Source: a phage. From it: a DNA stretch of 64,000 bases. Positions 11,767-63,593 of this stretch are shown here, one piece after another. Location: the sequence record OZ346164.1. One strand, written 5' to 3'. How positions within the stretch are numbered: position 1 is the first letter of the stretch; each line of letters opens with the position of its first letter. The notes below the pieces were generated by a model. That model was not told where the DNA came from and made no database searches. It saw only the letters and a program-made list of their open reading frames with translations. The translations under genes were made by a program, and so were the position numbers.

Positions 11767-12189
11767 ATGCAGAAAATGTTTGTTCACCCAGACATAGCTG
11801 ACTTTGTTAGAGCTTTGCAGAAGTTGGAAGAACTTGACATTGCTGCTCAACGGGAATATGCTCACCATCACAGGAGAATGGTTGATATACAACATGAAAT
11901 AGAGTTGTCTGAAAACTATGAAGATGACTTAAAATGCTCTGTATTTGAGCATATGAAAGATGTTGCTACAGCTAGACGTAAAGCTAAAGACACAGTTGCT
12001 TTACTAGATTCTCTTAAAAAGAGGTTGCAAAGTGGTACAGACCTGTGTAATCTAGCGTCACTGATTAACGATGTTGAAACTTCTTGGGATAGGCACTATT
12101 ATCCACGTTCTGAAAAGACACTTGACTTTTCTTCATCAGAAAACTTAAAATGTTCTAGAAAGAAACTTAACCAACTGAGAGAGAAATAA
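11767..12189 (+). CDS. hypothetical protein
   Basis: 140 aa ORF, first gene after divergent promoter region. Confidence 0.4.
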   Translation: MQKMFVHPDIADFVRALQKLEELDIAAQREYAHHHRRMVDIQHEIELSENYEDDLKCSVFEHMKDVATARRKAKDTVALLDSLKKRLQSGTDLCNLASLINDVETSWDRHYYPRSEKTLDFSSSENLKCSRKKLNQLREK

Positions 12190-30027: not shown

Positions 30028-30057
30028 AAGGGAACTGTAAAGGTTCCCTTTTTATTT
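30028..30057 (+). terminator. rho-independent terminator
   Basis: GGGAAC...GTTCCC hairpin plus T-run. Confidence 0.6.
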
Positions 30058-30180
30058 TGGAGATGATATGTATCTGTCAAACCTAAAACGTTCTGCTGCA
30101 ATGTCAGTGTTAAGACTTAGCTTTGAGGAACGTCAAGAGTTCATTGACTCCACCAATACGACCCCTCAAACTCCAATCAC

Positions 30181-30453
30181 ATGATTCTCTGGAATCGTGA
30201 AAGTACTCGTGAAAGAGTACTATTCCGTTATTACCCACACTACACTATAGATAACCTGTATGAATGTTTTGTTGTGAAGAACACCATTGCAGTGCTCAAT
30301 AAGCTTTGTAGATACACAGGTAGTCAATCCTTCACATTAGGCCACCACAAACCTGTTACAAAAGGTGGTGAACATCACTGTGCAAACTGGTTTATTCAGA
30401 CTAAAGCTGATAACCAGAAGCAAGGAGATAACCTTTTAAGTGCCCTAAGATGA
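30181..30453 (+). CDS. small HNH endonuclease
   Basis: GHHKPVTKGGEHHCANW...NQKQ matches HH..GG..N..N HNH pattern. Confidence 0.5.
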   Translation: MILWNRESTRERVLFRYYPHYTIDNLYECFVVKNTIAVLNKLCRYTGSQSFTLGHHKPVTKGGEHHCANWFIQTKADNQKQGDNLLSALR

Positions 30454-30573
30454 CCTATGAAGAGCAAGAGAGATATATCAAAAATAATATGCCAGATGTG
30501 CTTGACAACAACTATACAGATTTGGCAATATCTCTCCTGTTGAAGTTCGAGACAGTTTATAGGGCAACTTATA

Positions 30574-30852
30574 ATGGCTAAAGAAAAGTGGGAGATTTTA
30601 CCATTAGTCAGTGAAGGAGGTAATGGTTGTGAAATGTACATGATACGTGGTCATGTTCCAGAGCCAATTGCACTTGAGATGGTAAACAACTTTACAGATG
30701 GTTCTTACAAAGACTTAGGCGAACCAACTGTCAAGCAACAATGGGTTAAACCTGTACCAGACAGCACAGGTAACTGTAGTGTACTTTATCACGTTGTAGA
30801 CCCTGCAAAATGCAAATCTGCAATGGCAGTAACAAACGTAACTTTTGATTGA
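30574..30852 (+). CDS. hypothetical protein
   Basis: 92 aa ORF. Confidence 0.3.
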   Translation: MAKEKWEILPLVSEGGNGCEMYMIRGHVPEPIALEMVNNFTDGSYKDLGEPTVKQQWVKPVPDSTGNCSVLYHVVDPAKCKSAMAVTNVTFD

Positions 30853-31745
30853 GAGAGAAAACTATGAAAACTGTTATTGAAGCCGTCATCACCGCTCAAG
30901 AGAAATTCTTCCACACAGAAAAATTTAATATCATTCAATTCCCATCTGGAGAAATTGGTGGAAACTTCTCTGAAGATTTTGTTAAGTTTACTGAGCGTAA
31001 TGCCGGTAAGATTGATAATGTTATAATTACTGTACAGGGATATGACAAAGATACACTGTTTGCATTAGCTTTGGCTAAGGATGCCGTTGACAGTCTTGTT
31101 CCCCAGAAATCAGCGATGAAAACCGTTGTTTTCGGGTTCTTACCAAATGCTCGATATGACCGCCACATGTTCAAAGGTGATGCAGCAGCACTGAAAGTCT
31201 TTGCCAACCTAGTTAATGCAATGGGTTTTGATGCAGTATGTGCTCTTGACCCTCATAGTAATGTTGCAGAAAACTTATTTAAGTGCTTTCAAAGCATGAA
31301 GCAAAAAGATGTGGCAGTACACTTTGCAAGTGACCCACGCATTGATTTCTTGGTAGCCCCAGATGCAGGTGCAGCTAAGAAGACTGAAGATACCGCTAAA
31401 GAGGTGGATAAACCGTATATCACAATGTCTAAGGTGCGCAATCTTAAGACTGGAGAAATCACTGGTATGCGAATCCTAGACGATGTTGATTTGACCGATA
31501 AAACTGTCATGATTCTTGATGATATCTGTGATGGTGGTCGAACCTTCGTAGAGGCAGCTAAACACCTACGTGAAGCAGGTGCAAAACGTGTGGAACTCTA
31601 TGTAACTCATGGTATTTTCTCTAAAGGTGTTGAAAACTTACTTGACAACGGTATTGACCATATCTACACTACAAACACCTTAGGTGAAGCTAAAGACCGT
31701 GGCTTAACACATTACGCCCAAGTTACTGTAGCAACCATTGATTGA
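30849..31745 (+). CDS. ribose-phosphate pyrophosphokinase-like protein (candidate ADP-ribose pyrophosphate synthetase)
   Basis: PRTase motif ILDDICDGGRT and ALDPHS region typical of Prs family. Confidence 0.7.
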   Translation: MREKTMKTVIEAVITAQEKFFHTEKFNIIQFPSGEIGGNFSEDFVKFTERNAGKIDNVIITVQGYDKDTLFALALAKDAVDSLVPQKSAMKTVVFGFLPNARYDRHMFKGDAAALKVFANLVNAMGFDAVCALDPHSNVAENLFKCFQSMKQKDVAVHFASDPRIDFLVAPDAGAAKKTEDTAKEVDKPYITMSKVRNLKTGEITGMRILDDVDLTDKTVMILDDICDGGRTFVEAAKHLREAGAKRVELYVTHGIFSKGVENLLDNGIDHIYTTNTLGEAKDRGLTHYAQVTVATID

Positions 31746-31792
31746 AACTTTATATGGGCTTGAAAGCCCCACTTTGAGAGAGAGATTAAAAG

Positions 31793-33574
31793 ATGACTAA
31801 ATCACTTTACGCAGTACCAGCAGGTCTTAATGCAGATGCTTACAAGGCATCACATATATATCAGTATCCAGATGCTACGCAATATCTTATGTTGAACCTG
31901 ACACCACGTAGTGATAAATGGTTTAACAGCCCTTTGGCAATTGACGGTGTAGTGGCTTTTGGTATTCAACGTTTCGTTAAAGATTACTTGATAGACCACT
32001 GGAACGCCACTTTCTTTGAACGTGATAAAAAAGAAGCCATTGATGAAATCTTAGAAGTCATGAATGGTGTTCTGGGTAAAGATGCTATCGGTCGAGAGCA
32101 CTGGGAAGCACTTCACGACTTAGGTTATCTACCAGTTGAAGTATACGCTGTAGAAGAAGGTACAGTTGTCCCTATGCGCGTCCCAATGATTGTCTTCCAG
32201 AACACTGTTTCAGGCTTCCATTGGGTAGCGGGGTATCTGGAAGATGCTTTCTCTGCTGAGATTTGGAAGGCTTGTACCATTGCAACTATTGCATTGCACT
32301 ACAAACGTATCTGTAAGAAGTGGGCTGACCTTACTTGTGACAACGACTTGCATTTGCCTTATCAGTGCCATGACTTTGCTATGCGTGGTATGTCCGGCTT
32401 TACTGATGACGCATTTAACGCTGTAGGCCACTTAACCAGCTTTAAAGGAACTGATAGCTTCCCTGCTGTGTATACGGCTAAACGAATCTATGGACAGTCC
32501 TACCCAATCTCTGATATTGGTAGCTCTGTACCAGCCACTGAGCACTCTGTAATGTGTGCAAACATTGCTTGGGAAGGTGGTAATGAGTTGATTGAAGAAG
32601 AAAGACGCTTTAAAGGTGAGTTACAAACCTTCCGTCGTTTCTTAACAGAAACTTACCCAACTGGTATTGCAAGTGTTGTTTCAGACACTTATAACTTCTG
32701 GAGAACTGTGTCAGAAATTTTACCAGCACTTCGTAAAGAAATTATGGAACGTGATGGCAAACTGGTAATTCGTCCTGACTCTGGAGACCCTGTACATATT
32801 GTCACAGGTTATAAAGCAATCCACTTAGAATGTGCTAAAAAGGCTTATTACGAGCACCTAAGCAAGCTGGAAGCCAGTGACACAATGTTGAATGCTGTTC
32901 TGAACATGAAGCTTGAAAATATCAACTATGGTATTGCTGGATGGCTACTGTCAGAAGGCTACGAAATGGTTGTTGACAGAGAAGACTTTGAAGTTGCTGA
33001 TACAGTGATGTTGAAAAATGCTTATATGGTTGGTTCTGCAAACGTTGTAACACGTCCTGTAGCTGAGATTGATGGAGCTATTAAGACACTGTACAACATC
33101 TTCGGAGGGACTATTAACTCTAAAGGGTTTAAGGTACTGGATGAGCACATCGGCCTTATCTATGGTGACTCTATCACGCTGGAACGTGCAAACGAAATCC
33201 TGAAGCGTCTGTATGAAATGGGTTTTGCAAGCTCTAACGTAGTGTTTGGTGTAGGCTCTTACACTTACCAGTACATGACTCGTGACACCTTTGCATTTGC
33301 TGTCAAAGCAACTCTTGCAAGCATTGGTGGTAAAGAGATTATGCTTGCAAAAGACCCTAAAACAGATAGTGGTGTTAAGAAATCTGCCTTTGGTGGTGTA
33401 GCACCTATGTGGGATGGTGATAAGCTGAAAGCTGTAGATGGCTATGGATTCCAGAGTTTTGCAGATGTACTTGACCACCAAGCTTGTGCTTTACGTTTAG
33501 TCTTTAGCGACTCTGAGCAGTTCGGTTATACAACTCTTGGAGATATTCGAAATAATATTGACAAGCAGCTTTAA
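31793..33574 (+). CDS. nicotinamide phosphoribosyltransferase-like protein
   Basis: N-terminal NADAYKASHIYQYP resembles NAMPT/NadV signature. Confidence 0.7.
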   Translation: MTKSLYAVPAGLNADAYKASHIYQYPDATQYLMLNLTPRSDKWFNSPLAIDGVVAFGIQRFVKDYLIDHWNATFFERDKKEAIDEILEVMNGVLGKDAIGREHWEALHDLGYLPVEVYAVEEGTVVPMRVPMIVFQNTVSGFHWVAGYLEDAFSAEIWKACTIATIALHYKRICKKWADLTCDNDLHLPYQCHDFAMRGMSGFTDDAFNAVGHLTSFKGTDSFPAVYTAKRIYGQSYPISDIGSSVPATEHSVMCANIAWEGGNELIEEERRFKGELQTFRRFLTETYPTGIASVVSDTYNFWRTVSEILPALRKEIMERDGKLVIRPDSGDPVHIVTGYKAIHLECAKKAYYEHLSKLEASDTMLNAVLNMKLENINYGIAGWLLSEGYEMVVDREDFEVADTVMLKNAYMVGSANVVTRPVAEIDGAIKTLYNIFGGTINSKGFKVLDEHIGLIYGDSITLERANEILKRLYEMGFASSNVVFGVGSYTYQYMTRDTFAFAVKATLASIGGKEIMLAKDPKTDSGVKKSAFGGVAPMWDGDKLKAVDGYGFQSFADVLDHQACALRLVFSDSEQFGYTTLGDIRNNIDKQL

Positions 33575-33587
33575 AAGTATATGATAA

Positions 33588-33612
33588 GAGGCTCCTACGG
33601 GAGCCTTTTTAA
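33588..33612 (+). terminator. rho-independent terminator
   Basis: GGCTCCTACGGGAGCC hairpin plus T-run. Confidence 0.6.
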
Positions 33613-33627
33613 TTTCTGGAGAAGACT

Positions 33628-41055: not shown

Positions 41056-41841
41056 ATGGGTATTGTAAAAATCATCAATGGCGATATCTTTGCCGCATTT
41101 GATAAAGGTAAGTTTGACATTATTGGTCACGGTTGCAACTGTATGAATTTAATGGGTGCAGGTATCGCTGACAAGATTTCTAAACTTTACCCAAAAGCAT
41201 ATGAGACAGATACAGAAGTCTATCTATATGCAGGTGGCATAGGTCACAAACCCTGTGAAAATTTACTGGGTAATTTCTCTGTAGCACGTTTAAAACAAGG
41301 TCGTATAGCTAACCTTTACACTCAGCTTAAGACTGGTAAAGATGCCCGATACAGTGCTTTAGAGTCATCTTTGAAGCAACTTAACAGATACTGTGAAGTT
41401 AATCAGTTGAAGAAAGTTGGTTTACCTATGATTGGTGCAGGTATCGGTGGACTTGACCCTCAAGCCGTCACAGTTATCATCAATCAGGTGATGAAGAGCG
41501 TAGATGTTTATCTATATGTCTATGAAGGAGAGATGTACCATAAGTTACTCTCAGGTTGGAAGAACTACTGTGAACCAGAATACTTTGCAGGTGTAGCAGT
41601 GTTCACAGATAACGCAGTTACCCTCTTCAGACGAAGAAAAGGTAAGATACATCAAAGTAACCCTCCGGTTGAAAAGATGTCTCTAAGTAACGCTCTAGTT
41701 ACCCACCTGTCAAAGAGCAATCACAGAATTGCTGTAACATTTGGTAGTGATGCAGAAGCTTATATCTATGCAAGAACTGATGAGGATATTGAGGCAATCT
41801 TCTCTTCACCAGAAGTTACCTTCTTAGACGCAAAGAACTAA
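41056..41841 (+). CDS. macro-domain-like protein
   Basis: N-terminal INGDIF...GHGCNCMNLMGAGIA resembles macro (ADP-ribose binding) fold signature. Confidence 0.4.
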   Translation: MGIVKIINGDIFAAFDKGKFDIIGHGCNCMNLMGAGIADKISKLYPKAYETDTEVYLYAGGIGHKPCENLLGNFSVARLKQGRIANLYTQLKTGKDARYSALESSLKQLNRYCEVNQLKKVGLPMIGAGIGGLDPQAVTVIINQVMKSVDVYLYVYEGEMYHKLLSGWKNYCEPEYFAGVAVFTDNAVTLFRRRKGKIHQSNPPVEKMSLSNALVTHLSKSNHRIAVTFGSDAEAYIYARTDEDIEAIFSSPEVTFLDAKN

Positions 41842-46016: not shown

Positions 46017-46559
46017 ATGAAATGCTATCACGGAACTACTCAAGAAAATTTCCTCAACCTGATTAATAACGGTGATAAACCATCAGGCGCATGGAATTGT
46101 TCGGATATGGACGGCAATTTTTACGTGTATCCAGAAAATAAAATCTATGGCGACGATGAGGAAGAAATAGCATCAGAGGGCATTCAGCAAGCTCTAGGCA
46201 ATGCCACTATCACCGCAGCTTTTCAGATGAAGACTCAAAATATTGTTATCTTAGAACTCGATATTCCAGAGGATGAGCTAAATGATGATTATTCTTGTGA
46301 TAATATGTCGAGTGTAGCAAGTTTTACAGAGTACTTTGATGTAAATTGGATTAAAAAGGTCTATACAACAGAGTTTAACGCTATGTATTCACCTTTTTGT
46401 CTTCCTTCATTGGATAACCCAAATTTAAACTATCTTGATGAGCCTCTGGAGCTTCTTGCTAAAAGTGTCCAACAGTCGGACAGTATTCAGGTTTTTTGTG
46501 ACATCATGGACACACTAACGGGAAACATCGCAGAAGAGGATTTAAAGAGCTTTTTCTAA
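46017..46559 (+). CDS. small early-type protein
   Basis: 180 aa acidic protein. Confidence 0.45.
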   Translation: MKCYHGTTQENFLNLINNGDKPSGAWNCSDMDGNFYVYPENKIYGDDEEEIASEGIQQALGNATITAAFQMKTQNIVILELDIPEDELNDDYSCDNMSSVASFTEYFDVNWIKKVYTTEFNAMYSPFCLPSLDNPNLNYLDEPLELLAKSVQQSDSIQVFCDIMDTLTGNIAEEDLKSFF

Positions 46560-58630: not shown

Positions 58631-58708
58631 TCTCTGTTTAGCTCAGCTTGGTAGAGCGTTCCGTTTGGGGCGGTAAGGCCGGAGGTTCAAGTCCTCCAAC
58701 AGAGACCA
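58631..58708 (+). tRNA. tRNA-Pro (anticodon UGG)
   Basis: 7 bp acceptor, D stem GCTC/GAGC, loop TTTGGGG, T arm GGAGG-TTCAAGT-CCTCC. Confidence 0.75.
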
Positions 58709-58715
58709 AATTAAT

Positions 58716-58793
58716 GTTCCAGTAGACAAAATGGTATAGTCACCACTCTTTCAAAGTGGATATCTGAGGGTTCAAATCCCTTCTGGAACGCCA
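58716..58793 (+). tRNA. tRNA-Glu (anticodon UUC)
   Basis: Acceptor GTTCCAG/CTGGAAC, anticodon stem CCACT/AGTGG, loop CTTTCAA, encoded CCA. Confidence 0.75.
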
Positions 58794-58883
58794 GTTTTGA
58801 CAGAAGACCAATTACAGCAAACTTAATCTACTCATCTGAAAGTTAATCGGACAAAGAAGATATTTGGTCTGGTCATTAAGAAT

Positions 58884-58960
58884 TGCGGGTATAGAGAAAG
58901 GGCGTCTCACATGTCTCATTAGCATGGTATCGGCAGGTTCGACTCCTGCACCCGCCTCCA
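58884..58960 (+). tRNA. tRNA with anticodon CAU (Met or Ile2), 1-72 mismatch
   Basis: Loop CTCATTA, T arm GCAGG-TTCGACT-CCTGC, acceptor pairs 2-7 only. Confidence 0.6.
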
Positions 58961-59042
58961 AATTTACAGAAGACCGTTTACAGCAATATTTATTAAATTT
59001 TTAGCGGAAAAATTGAAAGATACGGTCTGGTAATACTAAATA

Positions 59043-59120
59043 TGGTTAGGAAGCACATAAGGTATGTGCGGTCGCCTGTTAAGCGAATGGCACAGGGTTC
59101 GAATCCCTGACTAACCGCAA
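59043..59120 (+). tRNA. tRNA-Asn (anticodon GUU)
   Basis: D stem GCAC/GTGC, loop CTGTTAA, T arm CAGGG-TTCGAAT-CCCTG. Confidence 0.7.
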
Positions 59121-59128
59121 AATTAAAT

Positions 59129-59216
59129 GTGTCGTTATCCCGTAGATGGTAGCGGTGGGGACTGTAAATCCCTTGTCATTGAGACTCGGTAGGTTCGACT
59201 CCTACACGGCACACCA
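59129..59216 (+). tRNA. tRNA-Tyr (anticodon GUA), long variable arm
   Basis: Acceptor GTGTCGT/ACGGCAC, loop CTGTAAA, about 15 nt variable arm, encoded CCA. Confidence 0.75.
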
Positions 59217-59221
59217 ATAAA

Positions 59222-59298
59222 GGCTATGTAGTTTAACTGGAGAAAATACTCCCCTGTCACGGGAGATGATGTGAGTTCAAGTCTCATCGTAGCCGCCA
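59222..59298 (+). tRNA. tRNA-Asp (anticodon GUC)
   Basis: Acceptor GGCTATG/CGTAGCC, stem CTCCC/GGGAG, loop CTGTCAC, encoded CCA. Confidence 0.75.
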
Positions 59299-59499
59299 AT
59301 TTTGAGAGGGCTATTTAGCCCCTCCCTTAAAGAGTTCTTACGAGTATTCTTTAAAGGAGCAGAAGACCAAATACAGCAAGAATGTATGATATTTTCAAGC
59401 CAATTCAATTTTGAAAAATTTAAAACTTGGTCTGGCTCAACAAATTTACAGAAGACCGTTTACAGCAAAACTTAAACAATCTATTTCTCGGTAAAGAAA

Positions 59500-59540
59500 A
59501 GGCGAAGGTTCGATTCCTTCACTCGGCAGAGGTCGAGTTG
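59500..59540 (+). ncRNA. tRNA-like T-arm plus acceptor minihelix (not a full tRNA)
   Basis: GAAGG-TTCGATT-CCTTC T-arm-like hairpin directly followed by ACTCGGC-AGAG-GTCGAGT hairpin and D-loop-like GTTGGTGTAATGGTAG. Confidence 0.4.
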
Positions 59541-59730
59541 GTGTAATGGTAGCACTTAAGATGATAAACAACGGTCTGGTAATTATCTTTGCAGTAGCTT
59601 ATGTGGCTAATTATGTCGTCCCATGAGTGCCGATGAATTTCCTTAGCATGATTCTAGATTAGCTTAATAGGAAATGACTCTACAGACCCTTTAGCAAGGT
59701 CTGCGTAGGTTACTGCAAAGATGATTTAAT

Positions 59731-59806
59731 GGAAGTGTAGCAGAATGGTGATGCGGCAGACTTTTAATCTGACAGGCGATGGGTTCGAATCCCTCCACTT
59801 CTACCA
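59731..59806 (+). tRNA. tRNA-Lys (anticodon UUU)
   Basis: Acceptor GGAAGTG/CACTTCT, loop CTTTTAA, TTCGAAT T-loop, encoded CCA. Confidence 0.65.
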
Positions 59807-59811
59807 AAAAT

Positions 59812-59888
59812 GGTTCAGTCGCAGATAAGGTAATGCAAGGGTTTCATAAGCCCTATGAATGTGGGTTCGATTCCCATCTGAACCTCCA
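59812..59888 (+). tRNA. tRNA-Met (anticodon CAU)
   Basis: Acceptor GGTTCAG/CTGAACC, stem AGGGT/GCCCT, loop TTCATAA, encoded CCA. Confidence 0.7.
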
Positions 59889-59890
59889 AT

Positions 59891-59966
59891 GCTGTGAAAG
59901 CACATATGGATGTGCATTCGGCTGATAACCGAAAGGCAGAAGGTTCGAATCCTTCTCACAGTACCA
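59891..59966 (+). tRNA. tRNA-Ile (anticodon GAU)
   Basis: Stem TTCGG/CCGAA, loop CTGATAA, T arm GAAGG-TTCGAAT-CCTTC, encoded CCA. Confidence 0.75.
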
Positions 59967-59982
59967 ATTTCAATAAAGTTGT

Positions 59983-60010
59983 TGACATTAAGATGTGACT
60001 ACTTTATAGT
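59983..60010 (+). promoter_or_regulatory. sigma70-like internal promoter in tRNA cluster
   Basis: TTGACA, 16-17 bp spacer, TATAGT. Confidence 0.5.
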
Positions 60011-60214
60011 AACCTTAGTTTTCGTTGCGTAGCGTCTATTTTGCAAATTTAAAATAAATGCAAACGACAATGTTTTTCTGGCAGTAGCTTGATAGGCTAA
60101 ACACCAGTGAGGTCTTCCAATCCCTCATCAAAGAATTTGGCGTACTCGCCCACGGTATGATTAATAAGGTGGGCATCTTTAAGGGCTTTCTAATAGAGTC
60201 TTTAAAGATAATTA

Positions 60215-60296
60215 CGGGGCGTATCTCAGCGGTCTTCTAAACCGCCGTTAACCGAGTAAGTGGAGTATGCGGGTTCGAGTCCTGCCGCCTCGACCA
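60215..60296 (+). tRNA. atypical tRNA-like gene, possible anticodon UCU (Arg)
   Basis: Good T arm and acceptor (CGGGGCG/CGCCTCG, CCA encoded) and GCGGT-CTTCTAA-ACCGC anticodon-like hairpin, but D-arm spacing non-canonical. Confidence 0.35.
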
Positions 60297-60439
60297 ATTT
60301 AGTTAGCAGATTACTTAGACGACCTAAGCGGGTCTTCCTGTAGGGAGGTGGTCTGTATCTCATGTTTTCCAGAACATGTAAATAATCTGAGAAGGGGCTT
60401 TACAGTGTTGAGATAATACGGTAAGCTTCGAATTATAGT

Positions 60440-60522
60440 ATGGGACGATGTTAAGACTCTAAGGCATGAGCAACGGCCTCCAAAACCGTTTCAAAGGGGT
60501 TCAACTCCTCCGTCCCATGCCA
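60440..60522 (+). tRNA. tRNA-Trp (anticodon CCA), enlarged D region
   Basis: Acceptor ATGGGAC/GTCCCAT, loop CTCCAAA, TTCAACT T-loop, CCA encoded; about 7 extra nt in D region. Confidence 0.5.
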
Positions 60523-60535
60523 AAGTCTTATTAGG

Positions 60536-60623
60536 GGTAGGTAGCGGCTAATGGCAGCCAAACAGTCTTGAAAACTGTTGCCACTGTAGAGATACGGTGA
60601 GGGTTCGACTCCTTTACTTACCG
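60536..60623 (+). tRNA. tRNA-Ser (anticodon UGA), long variable arm
   Basis: Acceptor GGTAGGT/ACTTACC, stem ACAGT/ACTGT, loop CTTGAAA, about 20 nt variable arm. Confidence 0.7.
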
Positions 60624-60881
60624 CCTAATAAGATTTTAAAGCCAAGCTTCATTCGGATGTCGCTTTGGTATCCCTCGTGTATTGTCGTACACACTGATAA
60701 AACACCTAGTAGGTGTCACGGAGAAGAGATAATATCAAGCTCTCCAAAGGTTCTAGTCACCGGATTAAACAAGACTATGCAAAGACCTTTTTAGGTCTTT
60801 TTAGAGGGCTTCTAAGGTTATTACAGCTTGTTGTGGAACCTTGTTGCTTAGGTTCTTAGAAGTTCTCTAAAAAGATTTAAT

Positions 60882-60958
60882 GCACCTATAGCCCAACTGG
60901 TAGAGGCAGCAGACTTAGAATCTGCTCAGTGTGAGTTCGAATCTCTCTAGGTGTACCA
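60882..60958 (+). tRNA. tRNA with Leu anticodon UAG but short variable arm
   Basis: Stem GCAGA/TCTGC, loop CTTAGAA, discriminator A, CCA encoded; only 5 nt variable loop. Confidence 0.55.
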
Positions 60959-60965
60959 AATTAAT

Positions 60966-61041
60966 GCAGGTGTAGCAAAATGGTTATGCGGCTGACCCTT
61001 AATCAGTAAGACGATGGGTTCAATTCCCTCCACCTGTACCA
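60966..61041 (+). tRNA. tRNA-Lys (anticodon CUU), tentative
   Basis: Acceptor GCAGGTG/CACCTGT, loop CCCTTAA (C at position 33), CCA encoded. Confidence 0.5.
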
Positions 61042-61047
61042 AACAAT

Positions 61048-61123
61048 GGGGTCATAGTTTATATGGTTAAAATTCGAGTTTTGCAAACTTGGGAACTGAG
61101 TTCAATTCTCAGTGACTCCACCA
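61048..61123 (+). tRNA. tRNA-Ala (anticodon UGC)
   Basis: Acceptor GGGGTCA/TGACTCC, loop TTTGCAA, T arm CTGAG-TTCAATT-CTCAG, CCA encoded. Confidence 0.7.
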
Positions 61124-61129
61124 ATTAGT

Positions 61130-61204
61130 GCATCCATAGTTTAAACGGGAAAATTACAGTCTTCCAAACTGAGGTTGAGGGTTCGATTCCCTCTGGATGC
61201 TCCA
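61130..61204 (+). tRNA. tRNA-Gly (anticodon UCC)
   Basis: Perfect acceptor GCATCCA/TGGATGC, loop CTTCCAA, T arm GAGGG-TTCGATT-CCCTC. Confidence 0.8.
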
Positions 61205-61211
61205 AATTAAT

Positions 61212-61287
61212 GCTCCTATCGTATAATTGGTTATTACGGTTGCCTTGTAAGCAACTTATCAGGGTTCGAGTCCTTGTGGGAGCACCA
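61212..61287 (+). tRNA. tRNA-Thr (anticodon UGU)
   Basis: Stem GTTGC/GCAAC, loop CTTGTAA, TTCGAGT T-loop, CCA encoded. Confidence 0.8.
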
Positions 61288-61290
61288 ATT

Positions 61291-61380
61291 CAGAGGTCAA
61301 GTGAAAGACCGCTTTGAGTCAACTGAAGACCGTAACAAATTCCACGAAGTTGAGTTAGCGGCACAACTTCAGACCTCTTT
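61291..61380 (+). ncRNA. long structured hairpin element between tRNAs
   Basis: CAGAGGTC ... GACCTCTT closing stem around about 75 nt containing GAAGACCG motifs; no T-loop. Confidence 0.35.
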
Positions 61381-61383
61381 CAT

Positions 61384-61458
61384 ACTCGCTTAGTTTATAT
61401 GGTAAAACATCACCCTTACAAGATGAAGAAAAAGGTTCAAGTCCTTTAGTGAGTACCA
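61384..61458 (+). tRNA. tRNA-Val (anticodon UAC)
   Basis: D stem GTTT/AAAC, loop CTTACAA, T arm AAAGG-TTCAAGT-CCTTT, CCA encoded. Confidence 0.7.
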
Positions 61459-61459
61459 T

Positions 61460-61537
61460 GTTCCAGTATCCCAATTGGCAGAGGATGCAAGCTCAAACCT
61501 TGTATTAGTGACGGTTCGAATCCGTCTTGGAACACCA
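61460..61537 (+). tRNA. tRNA with Leu anticodon CAA but short variable arm
   Basis: Stem GCAAG/CTTGT, loop CTCAAAC, T arm GACGG-TTCGAAT-CCGTC, discriminator A, CCA encoded. Confidence 0.55.
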
Positions 61538-61542
61538 ATTTT

Positions 61543-61618
61543 GCAGGATTAGTTCAAATGGATAGAGCAACAGTCTACGAAGCTGCTAATAGGGGTTCGA
61601 ATCCCTTATCCTGCGCCA
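61543..61618 (+). tRNA. tRNA-Arg (anticodon ACG)
   Basis: Perfect acceptor GCAGGAT/ATCCTGC, D stem GTTC/GAGC, loop CTACGAA, CCA encoded. Confidence 0.8.
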
Positions 61619-61637
61619 ATTTAAAGAGGCTATTTAG

Positions 61638-62195
61638 ATGAGATATTTGAAGTATGCTTCATGGATTTTCTTAGCTTTGTTAGAGCCATTTGCAGCAATC
61701 TTAGCAGTTATCTTAGCACCTTTTGTAGTTCCATTCTACAGTGAGAAGAAAGGGCACTTACCTTTCGGGTTCAGATGGATGGAGACATATGACAACCCAA
61801 TTGATGGTGATGAAGGTCACGTTAAAAGATGGGCTAATATTAGATGGATTGGTAAACTAGGTGTCTACATGCAAAGAGTCGGATGGCTCTGGAGAAACAA
61901 AGCTTATAACTTCTCTTACCATGTATTAGGAAGAGATGTAAGAGATGTTACTAAGTGGAAAGGTAATATCAACGTAAGTTCTGACCCCGAAGATAATCAG
62001 ACAGGTTATCTCCTAATGTGGAACAGTAATGCTTGGGGATTATTCGCTTTTATCCCATCAATTAAAATCTTTGGTAAACAATTTTACTGGAGAATTTATA
62101 TTGGATGGAAACTAAAAAGTGTTGTCCCAGAAGAAAGAGCATTCTCAAGGGAAAGAGTTATGTTGGCATTCTTTATTCATCCACTGAGAAAGTAA
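61638..62195 (+). CDS. membrane protein encoded inside tRNA cluster
   Basis: 185 aa, hydrophobic N-terminus, Trp-rich. Confidence 0.45.
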   Translation: MRYLKYASWIFLALLEPFAAILAVILAPFVVPFYSEKKGHLPFGFRWMETYDNPIDGDEGHVKRWANIRWIGKLGVYMQRVGWLWRNKAYNFSYHVLGRDVRDVTKWKGNINVSSDPEDNQTGYLLMWNSNAWGLFAFIPSIKIFGKQFYWRIYIGWKLKSVVPEERAFSRERVMLAFFIHPLRK

Positions 62196-62203
62196 AGATT
62201 TAA

Positions 62204-62279
62204 AGGGGATTAGTTTACAAGGTTAAAACCTCGGTCTTTGAAATCGAAGAAGTTGGTTCAATTCCAACATCCCCCGCCA
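62204..62279 (+). tRNA. tRNA-Gln (anticodon UUG)
   Basis: D stem GTTT/AAAC, stem TCGGT/ATCGA, loop CTTTGAA, T arm GTTGG-TTCAATT-CCAAC. Confidence 0.7.
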
Positions 62280-62281
62280 AT

Positions 62282-62360
62282 GCTCCATTACTCCAATTGG
62301 CAGAGAGGCCAGACTTAAAATCTGTGTTATGTATCGGTTCGAATCCGATATGGAGTACCA
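62282..62360 (+). tRNA. tRNA with Leu anticodon UAA but short variable arm
   Basis: Loop CTTAAAA, T arm ATCGG-TTCGAAT-CCGAT, discriminator A, CCA encoded. Confidence 0.5.
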
Positions 62361-62365
62361 AATTT

Positions 62366-62441
62366 AGCGGTATAGCATAACTGGCAATGCAGCAGCCTCT
62401 GAAGCTGTCCTATTAAGGTTCAAATCCTTATGCCGCTGCCA
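62366..62441 (+). tRNA. tRNA-Gln (anticodon CUG)
   Basis: D stem GCAT/ATGC, stem GCAGC/GCTGT, loop CTCTGAA, T arm TAAGG-TTCAAAT-CCTTA. Confidence 0.65.
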
Positions 62442-62472
62442 CTTCTAAGGATTCTTGCGAGAGTCCTTAAAT

Positions 62473-62548
62473 GTGGCCTTATCATAAACGGTAATGACCC
62501 ATGCTGTGAACATGGTCTATACGGGTTCAAATCCCGTAGGTCACCCCA
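62473..62548 (+). tRNA. tRNA-His (anticodon GUG)
   Basis: D stem TCAT/ATGA, stem CCATG/CATGG, loop CTGTGAA, T arm ACGGG-TTCAAAT-CCCGT. Confidence 0.8.
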
Positions 62549-62553
62549 ATTTA

Positions 62554-62630
62554 TAGTCCAAGTAGCTTATATGGTTAAAGCGCGTGTCTGAAAAACATGA
62601 GAAGAGAGTTCAAATCCCACTGGACTACCA
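62554..62630 (+). tRNA. tRNA-Phe (anticodon GAA)
   Basis: Acceptor TAGTCCA/TGGACTA, stem CGTGT/ACATG, loop CTGAAAA; T stem weak. Confidence 0.6.
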
Positions 62631-62646
62631 ATTTCAAAGGTGCTTA

Positions 62647-63381
62647 ATGAAAGAGATGACAGAACAAGGTAAGGAGATTTTTAATCTCTTAAAAACTGGT
62701 AAAGGGTTCTCTAACCCGCTTATTACTGGTGCAGCAGTTCTCGGTGGAACCGTAGCTGCCTCTACATCACTTGTAAGCTCTATTAGTTCTGTAACAGACC
62801 CTACAATGAAGGAGAAGCTTGTTGCTGCTGGACTTACAACAGTCCTTCTAAACAGCTTTACAACAAGCCTGACAAGCACTACAGCAACCACTAAGACCCT
62901 AACAGACTATGGTCAAAAGTCTATTGATGAGTTTTCATCACGTATGCAGGTAGCAAAGGGATACTCCAATGTTATGGGTGCAGCAGGAGAACAAGTTGGT
63001 TGTACACCATTCAGTGGTATTATGGGTGTTGCTACAGAATATGGTCAAAAAGCTATTGATACGATTAACAGTACACTAGAGAGTGTTAATGGTGTGTTAA
63101 GTGACTTACAAGATGCTATTGATAAGGGTCTTGATACTGTTTCTGATTTAGCTAATCAGGCTGTTAGTAAGATTAATGAAGGTATTTCAAAGATTACAGC
63201 TTATGCAGATGAAGTTGTGCAGATGATTGAAGAAGAAGCTGCCCTTATTGCAGAGTACCTTAAAACGAATATCAATGGGTTCTTAGCAGGTATCTTACCA
63301 GACTGGTTTGATGATGCTTGTAAAACTGGTGTAATCGACACTATTGCAACACCAGAAATGAAGAACGCATTGCAGAAATAA
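62647..63381 (+). CDS. hypothetical protein encoded inside tRNA cluster
   Basis: Start moved to Met after tRNA-Phe (track start 62584 overlaps the tRNA); Ser/Thr/Ala-rich helical protein. Confidence 0.45.
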   Translation: MKEMTEQGKEIFNLLKTGKGFSNPLITGAAVLGGTVAASTSLVSSISSVTDPTMKEKLVAAGLTTVLLNSFTTSLTSTTATTKTLTDYGQKSIDEFSSRMQVAKGYSNVMGAAGEQVGCTPFSGIMGVATEYGQKAIDTINSTLESVNGVLSDLQDAIDKGLDTVSDLANQAVSKINEGISKITAYADEVVQMIEEEAALIAEYLKTNINGFLAGILPDWFDDACKTGVIDTIATPEMKNALQK

Positions 63382-63382
63382 T

Positions 63383-63475
63383 GGAAGATTAACCCTAAAA
63401 GGTAAGGGAGCAGTTTGCTAAACTGCCAGTAGCTGAGAAATCGGTGTACCAGTTCAAGTCTGGTATCTTCCTCCA
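63383..63475 (+). tRNA. tRNA-Ser (anticodon GCU), long variable arm
   Basis: Perfect acceptor GGAAGAT/ATCTTCC, stem GCAGT/ACTGC, loop TTGCTAA, long extra arm. Confidence 0.75.
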
Positions 63476-63480
63476 ATTTT

Positions 63481-63555
63481 GAATCCGTGACAGAAATGGA
63501 TATGTGCCTGTCTGCAAAACAGGTTTATAAGGGTTCAAGTCCCTTCGGATTCTCC
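63481..63555 (+). tRNA. tRNA-Cys (anticodon GCA)
   Basis: Perfect acceptor GAATCCG/CGGATTC, stem CCTGT/ACAGG, loop CTGCAAA, CCA encoded. Confidence 0.8.
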
Positions 63556-63593
63556 AAGTTATTTTACTCTCTCTCAATTAAAATAATAATAAT

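Follow-up and report, generated by a model that had tools for sequence, protein, structure and literature searches.

The window analysed here is a stretch of 64,000 nucleotides (nt) of phage DNA (sequence record OZ346164.1), and its + strand carries two neighbouring genes that together form a candidate counter-defence operon of the NAD+ reconstitution pathway 1 (NARP1) type. The first, adps (30864..31745), would encode an ADP-ribose pyrophosphokinase of the Prs family with 293 amino acids (aa), and the second, namat (31793..33574), a NAMPT-like nicotinamide ADP-ribose transferase of 593 aa. The two open reading frames (ORFs) lie 47 nt apart, and a hairpin terminator stands at the end of the pair. 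An earlier note on this DNA had described two adjacent genes of Prs-like and NAMPT-like identity, and the ORF calls on the + strand, the Pfam matches and the quoted signatures confirm this. Adps matches Pribosyltran (7e-12) and Pribosyl_synth (2e-10) and contains the ILDDICDGGRT signature, and Namat matches NAPRTase (6e-35) and NAMPT_N (9e-6) and carries the NAMPT/NadV signature NADAYKASHIYQYP at aa 13. Both proteins have syntenic and nearly identical counterparts in phage JohannRWettstein (Bas63), with 290 of 293 residues (99%) identical between Adps and Bas63 gp79, and 581 of 593 (98%) between Namat and Bas63 gp80.

The TTG that opens the maximal adps ORF (30849) shares bases with the stop codon of the preceding gene, and the length of 298 aa given in the earlier note runs from this TTG. 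The ATG at 30864 is preceded by a Shine-Dalgarno-like element, GAGAGAGA, and the same element precedes the start of namat. Bas63 and phage momo are annotated with this same start, and the published Adps tables use it too; the ATG is almost certainly the true start of adps, giving a protein of 293 aa. The 47-nt spacer between the two genes (31746..31792, + strand) holds a small hairpin and the Shine-Dalgarno-like element GAGAGAGAGA, and 12 nt past the namat stop codon there is a terminator-like hairpin, with a stem of 10 base pairs followed by a T-run (33586..33609, + strand). A comparable hairpin at 30028-30050 forms the upstream boundary of the unit. Directly 5' of adps lies a gene of 92 aa belonging to PHROG 4726 (30574..30852, + strand), conserved as bas63_0078 and momo_90, which is probably in one transcription unit with adps and namat. 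A NARP1 operon is recognised by a Namat homologue close beside adps, and in the window this homologue follows on the same strand after the short spacer, with the shared Shine-Dalgarno-like element before it and the terminator behind it. A Namat neighbour is present for 97% of the genes in the Adps clade, and the pairing is therefore not a matter of chance.

The spacer is not always empty. In phage LinBro an annotated HNH homing-endonuclease gene sits between adps and namat (1506-1997 of the compared LinBro sequence), and phages ekra, TH10 and ECML-1, which match in two pieces, probably carry an HNH gene at the same site. At the other end of the unit, a sigma-70-like promoter of near-consensus sequence (TTGACA-16-TATGAT, 11/12) at 33558-33585 lies across the final codons of namat, directly 5' of the terminator hairpin, which is an odd arrangement.

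By its sequence, the window phage is a Felixounavirus. Its best nucleotide match is Escherichia phage momo (99.3%, megablast), and nearly all of the 259 phage records that match the region at the megablast level are Felixounavirus, the FelixO1-like myoviruses of Escherichia, Salmonella, Shigella and Citrobacter. The 22-86 kilobase (kb) part of Bas63 aligns collinearly with the window, in the order thymidylate synthase, dihydrofolate reductase, ligase, DNA polymerase, primase/helicase, NrdAB, NrdDG and adps-namat, followed by rIIA/rIIB, polynucleotide kinase, spanins, the macro-domain gene discussed below, endolysin and a tRNA cluster. The immediate flanks of adps-namat are also those of Bas63, with NrdD/NrdG upstream and rIIA/rIIB downstream. 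The two phages have in common the genus, the gene order, the near identity of both proteins, an insertion in Namat and the residues of the Namat clamp, and the functional residues are all alike.

NARP1 is already published for Felixounavirus, and the founding example has its orthologue in the window. The system, consisting of Adps and Namat, was discovered in the Bas63 operon of genes 79-80 (Osterman et al., bioRxiv 10.1101/2024.02.11.579819). When genes 79-80 were deleted, Bas63 became sensitive to SIR2-HerA and NAD+ collapsed, and ADP-ribose pyrophosphate (ADPR-PP, m/z 720.010) was detected only in cells that had the defence system and were infected by the wild-type phage (bioRxiv 10.1101/2024.02.11.579819). 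Bas63 still overcame SIR2-HerA in a pncC nadR double-deletion host (bioRxiv 10.1101/2024.02.11.579819), and the route through nicotinamide mononucleotide (NMN) is therefore ruled out. Since the Bas63 Adps "did not purify well", the homologues from SpbetaL1 were used in vitro, where Adps converted ADP-ribose (ADPR) and ATP to ADPR-PP and Namat converted ADPR-PP and nicotinamide to NAD+ (bioRxiv 10.1101/2024.02.11.579819). Both steps were later reproduced in vitro with the enzymes of Vibrio phage Gary, mycobacteriophage DyoEdafos and Paenibacillus foliorum. A second laboratory, using PhageMaP, found that Bas63 without g79 or g80 plates 1e4-1e6 times less well on Sir2-HerA cells, a defect that complementation repairs. 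Phages momo and FelixO1 are named in the original supplementary tables as carriers of Adps and of an "Adps-associated" Namat (bioRxiv 10.1101/2024.02.11.579819), and we found no literature that treats NARP1 together with Felixounavirus by name. Applied to the window phage, the pathway would begin when a host abortive-infection system of the SIR2, TIR or SEFIR type cleaves NAD+ to ADPR and nicotinamide. Adps (30864-31745) would then use ATP to pyrophosphorylate ADPR to ADPR-PP, and Namat (31793-33574) would swap the pyrophosphate for nicotinamide, giving NAD+ directly and without the NMN-dependent salvage enzymes of the host.

Adps was compared with curated profile models. It passes the broad TIGR01251 subfamily model with 139 bits against a cut-off of 113, and it scores below every NCBIfam equivalog cut-off for canonical Prs, the best result being 114 bits against 296. 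This failure of the equivalog models agrees with the published view, which gives Adps a clade of its own within the Prs family. The catalytic Lys190 (31431..31433, + strand) falls in an invariant column of the alignment with the Adps proteins of Vibrio phages, and its counterparts are K192 in Gary Adps, K162 in SpbetaL1 and K197 in Bacillus subtilis Prs, the identity of the mutated residue being taken from the literature. In the comparison with Bas63, the ratio dN/dS (omega) is 0.03 for adps and 0.07 for namat, and both genes are under strong purifying selection.

For Namat, an alignment of 32 homologues shows that the catalytic His251 (32543..32545, + strand; H243 in Gary Namat) and Arg327 (32771-32773, + strand; R306 in SpbetaL1) are invariant, as are D15, Y17, F195, R198, D221, D329 and G488-S489; in the SpbetaL1 crystals, the counterparts of these residues touch nicotinamide and NMN (PMC12774641). 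The window protein has the complete NAMPT-like catalytic core, with the catalytic His, the equivalent of Arg306, the nicotinamide-stacking Phe/Tyr and the Asp. What sets Namat apart from Nampt is an adenine-clamp motif (PMC12774641). The selectivity-clamp loop (SCL) of the window protein, TPRSDKWFNSPL (31901..31936, + strand), is identical to that of Bas63 and places Lys42-Trp43 at the adenine-stacking positions. The published rule for this loop asks for Arg, Lys or Tyr at position 3 and, where that residue is Lys or Tyr, for a next residue that stacks, with Bas63 as the example given in the paper (PMC12774641); the window loop, TPRSDKW, has the Lys followed by a stacking residue, whereas SpbetaL1 uses Arg40. 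The adenine-clamp motif in the selectivity-clamp helix (SCH), identified by the motif definition in the literature, reads GSYTYQYMTRD at aa 488-498 (33254..33286, + strand) and GSFTYQYNTRD in SpbetaL1, and its third phi position is Met in the window, where Asn or Val is commoner. Every published sequence determinant of Adps and Namat is conserved in the window pair.

The predicted fold of Namat points in the same direction as its residues. The nearest solved structures by sequence are the SpbetaL1 Namat crystals 9w5w/9w5x (5e-129), and the AlphaFold model of the window protein (predicted local distance difference test, pLDDT, 92.8) has its best fold match in 9w5x/9w5w, with a target-normalised template modelling score of 0.95 at 38% identity. 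The model fits the Namat crystals ahead of NadV (34% identity) and mammalian NAMPT (24%). The NARP1 of SpbetaL1 resembles that of the window in its two-gene operon, its catalytic core and its SCH motif (PMC12774641), but its Namat, at ~38% identity and ~490 aa, is without two insertions found in the window protein. The observations made directly on the window thus concern gene structure, orthology, the conserved catalytic and specificity residues, the fold and purifying selection.

Namats of the Felixounavirus type are ~100 aa longer than the characterised enzymes. A short insertion follows the catalytic His, and a second one of ~88 aa (aa 340-427; 32810..33073, + strand) follows the RPDSGDP strand; the latter appears as a gap in the alignments with PDB entries and is absent from SpbetaL1 Namat, NadV and NAMPT. 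It is predicted to form a compact alpha/beta sub-domain (AlphaFold pLDDT 94-97), and its dN/dS of 0.08 relative to Bas63 indicates purifying selection. The insertion occurs in phage Namats down to ~45% identity and is absent in the 496-aa chromosomal homologues of enterobacteria. When the 88-aa segment alone was searched against 1.8 billion representative proteins, it matched one fragment and had no detectable relatives outside Namat-like proteins, and therefore it is not a recognisable mobile domain. The structural paper on SpbetaL1 Namat does not mention it (PMC12774641).

The chromosomal homologues, of ~496 aa and 46-48% identity, were found on contigs of several megabases from Klebsiella, Cronobacter, Kosakonia, Citrobacter and Phytobacter, and they probably correspond to the "bacterial NARP1" type of the NAR 2026 paper. 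In a metagenomic homologue of 843 aa (P0095), ~350 aa are inserted at the site of the 88-aa insertion, and this segment is possibly an intein or homing element. P0095 was considered as an Adps-Namat fusion and rejected, as it is a Namat-like protein with the ~350-aa insert. The PHROG 12872 profile, with 547 positions, matches Adps (aa 45-232) in its first half and Namat (aa 243-587) in its second, a hint that some phages may encode a fused Adps-Namat protein.

We are highly confident that adps and namat of the window form a NARP1 operon, by which this Felixounavirus counters host defence. The earlier note had proposed this pairing, and the proposal is supported by the syntenic orthology with Bas63 79-80 and by the conservation of the published determinants. 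We infer the NARP1 activity of the window phage's own proteins from the 98-99% identical Bas63 proteins and from more distant homologues. Some points weigh against this identification. The in vitro data come from homologues and none from the enzymes of the window phage or of Bas63, whose Adps purified poorly; the 88-aa insertion is absent from the enzyme with known structure and biochemistry; and in vitro Namat still makes NMN from PRPP (phosphoribosyl pyrophosphate), roughly half as fast as human NAMPT, which makes some salvage flux possible. The alternative is ordinary salvage, in which a true PRPP synthetase and a NadV/NAMPT would make NMN, and host NadR or PncC would turn this into NAD+ as a boost for replication that is independent of any defence. 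The names in the databases all speak for it: every GenBank record annotates the pair as salvage enzymes, and Pfam, PHROGs and NCBIfam call the proteins Prs and NAMPT/NAPRTase. In a profile comparison against canonical models, which the earlier note had suggested, Adps fails all of the Prs equivalogs and Namat passes the NF006629 equivalog cut-off, and the acceptance of PRPP by Namat in vitro falls on the side of salvage as well.

The genetic and metabolomic results on the Bas63 proteins nevertheless speak against salvage as the chief function. The Bas63 proteins bring about rescue without pncC and nadR, and the infection-specific product is ADPR-PP and not an excess of NMN (bioRxiv 10.1101/2024.02.11.579819). 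The SpbetaL1 Adps gave no product from the Prs substrate but converted ADPR (bioRxiv 10.1101/2024.02.11.579819), and in the window the adenine-clamp motif that defines Namat against Nampt is present, besides the missed Prs cut-offs. A canonical Prs with a NadV/NAMPT is used in NARP2 of Vibrio phage KVP40, and it shares with the window pair the superfamilies and the phosphoribosyl-transfer chemistry. The substrates of NARP2, however, are ribose-5-phosphate and PRPP, whereas those of NARP1 are ADPR and ADPR-PP, and the window pair is without the Nmnat partner of NARP2. This NMN adenylyltransferase is nowhere annotated in the syntenic Bas63 genome. The caveat about plain salvage in the earlier note is largely answered for the Bas63 orthologue by the pncC nadR-independent escape and by ADPR-PP, while the residual PRPP-dependent activity stays, and we regard salvage as a very improbable account of the window pair.

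The window also contains a macro-domain gene (41056..41841, + strand; Pfam Macro 1e-7), 7.5 kb and ~17 genes downstream of adps-namat. Its product of 261 aa has an Adpp/Poa1p-like macro domain (aa 1-167) and a beta-rich C-terminal domain, and it is 98% identical to bas63_0095, annotated as "putative phosphatase". The earlier note had suggested in an aside that this protein could process ADPR derivatives in the same context. This bears on a variant of the pathway, NARP1-AP, described for defence by aRES proteins, which phosphorolyse NAD+ to nicotinamide and ADPR-1''-phosphate, a product that Adps cannot use (bioRxiv 10.64898/2026.01.28.702374). In some phages Adpp, a Poa1p-like macro-domain phosphatase, has been added to the NARP1 operon and regenerates ADPR (bioRxiv 10.64898/2026.01.28.702374). 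All three protein families of the Adps-Adpp-Namat operons of Vibrio phages Gary and Pontus (bioRxiv 10.64898/2026.01.28.702374) are present in the window, and the macro domain of Gary is homologous over its full length to that of the window.

Compared with a varied set of twelve Adpps, the N-terminal 165 aa of the macro protein show 27-35% identity, values that fall inside the range found between one Adpp and another, and hhalign of the protein against the NARP1-embedded Adpps gives a probability of 99.9% (E 1e-36, 149 columns). Two residues, His25 (41128-41130, + strand) and Asn28 (41137-41139, + strand), are invariant in the macro family and are equivalent to H24 and N27 of Gary Adpp, where H24A and N27A each abolish function (bioRxiv 10.64898/2026.01.28.702374). 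With this catalytic His and Asn in an Adpp/Poa1p-like macro domain, the gene product belongs to the same family as Adpp, which goes beyond the published literature. The layout of adps-namat, rIIA-rIIB and the macro gene is kept in Erwinia phage M7, a distant member of the Ounavirinae. In Gary and Pontus the macro gene lies between adps and namat, whereas in the window it lies outside the two genes on either side of NARP1 and in a separate transcription unit. The NARP1-AP study scanned only two genes either side of NARP1 (bioRxiv 10.64898/2026.01.28.702374), and therefore the Felixounaviruses were never scored. Its table lists phages of Vibrio, Pseudomonas, Acinetobacter and Pseudoalteromonas and no enterobacterial phage, and its aRES challenge panel of lambda, SECphi phages, T2, T4, T5 and T7 included no Felixounavirus (bioRxiv 10.64898/2026.01.28.702374).

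These observations allow a tentative extension, in which the Felixounaviruses, and the Ounavirinae more widely, including Erwinia phage M7, would have a dispersed NARP1-AP with the macro protein as an unlinked Adpp. The macro protein, encoded 7.5-9.6 kb downstream of adps-namat, would turn ADPR-1''-phosphate, as formed by NAD+ phosphorolysis of the aRES/RES type, into ADPR for use by NARP1. We consider this possible but doubtful; the aside in the earlier note is a sensible lead, to which the homology to Adpp lends support. Several findings make a specific link to NARP1 less likely. Outside the subfamily, the macro protein has its closest relatives in T4 Tk.4-type proteins, from phages that have no NARP1, and the macro family is found in ~2,850 phage records against ~1,300 for Adps (999 against 178 among Escherichia phage records), and it is therefore much broader than NARP1. 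The separate transcription unit and the extra beta-rich C-terminal domain also count against the link. In addition, the fold searches do not separate Poa1p, DarG and TARG1, which are the nearest folds to the model of the macro protein (pLDDT 90).

A function unrelated to NARP1 is somewhat probable. As a hydrolase of the DarG/TARG1 kind, the macro protein may strip ADP-ribose off DNA, RNA or protein, for instance to counter toxins of the DarT type. Alternatively, it may clear ADPR-1''-phosphate formed in an RNA-repair or Tpt1-like reaction; its T4 homologue Tk.4 must likewise have some task in a phage without NARP1, and we found no literature that treats Tk.4 with the macro domain. The hydrolase form of this explanation is made less likely by the position of the catalytic Lys of TARG1 and DarG (K84 in TARG1), which aligns with Gln90 of the window protein, a Gln that is invariant in the macro family and in all Adpps, and by the DarG equivalog model, for which the macro protein reaches 47.5 bits against a cut-off of 250. 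The conservation of both residues that are essential for Adpp function likewise speaks against a function apart from NARP1. With the macrodomains of yeast Poa1p, DarG and TARG1 the window protein shares 22-25% identity, and it differs from them in its additional C-terminal domain. As for a Tpt1-like reaction, Bas63 gp107 resembles Tpt1 according to PhageMaP, but the homologue of gp107 in the window (46017-46559) has no Pfam match, to Tpt1 or to any other family, and was dropped as evidence.

The beta-rich C-terminal domain of the macro protein (aa 168-261; 41557-41838) is found only in Ounavirinae-type proteins of ~250-264 aa; it matches nothing in Pfam, and no structural match of its own came up. 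It amounts to ~95 aa beyond the Gary and Pontus proteins, whose identity to the window protein is 27-35%.

Next to the operon, the window differs from Bas63 in two places. Between namat and a conserved 111-aa gene, Bas63 has an extra gene of 114 aa, bas63_0081 (11778-12122 of the compared Bas63 sequence), which is missing from the window (33575-33627) and from momo. Upstream, the homologue of Bas63 gene 77 (30068-30570) has two single-base deletions relative to Bas63 that break the reading frame and leave an internal ORF of 90 aa (30181-30453), whereas the gene is intact in momo (160 aa) and in Bas63. According to PhageMaP, gene 77 of Bas63 is a counter to retron Ec67, and the window homologue is either a pseudogene or reflects sequencing error in homopolymer runs. 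Elsewhere in the window, 25 tRNA genes are clustered at 58632-63556 on the + strand, as is typical of Felixounavirus.

The description of NARP1 in this very genus of phages dates from 2024, structural work has followed, and as a discovery the operon is nothing new. Public annotations and curated HMM (hidden Markov model) libraries still say "ribose-phosphate pyrophosphokinase" and "nicotinamide/nicotinate phosphoribosyltransferase", and the recognition of the counter-defence pair from the sequence alone therefore outdid the pipelines. The remaining interest is in the macro-gene lead and in the uncharacterised Namat insertion, on which the literature is silent. In phage therapy and biocontrol, Felixounaviruses are often considered as candidates, and from NARP1 they would be expected to plate on hosts with NAD+-depleting defences of the SIR2, TIR or SEFIR type. 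The unlinked Adpp-like macro gene bears on whether accessory modules of NARP1 need operon linkage. If the dispersed NARP1-AP is real, the Felixounaviruses would withstand aRES defence, a system present in E. coli, Klebsiella and Enterobacter, and the reported fraction of NARP1 phages with Adpp (15%) would be an underestimate.

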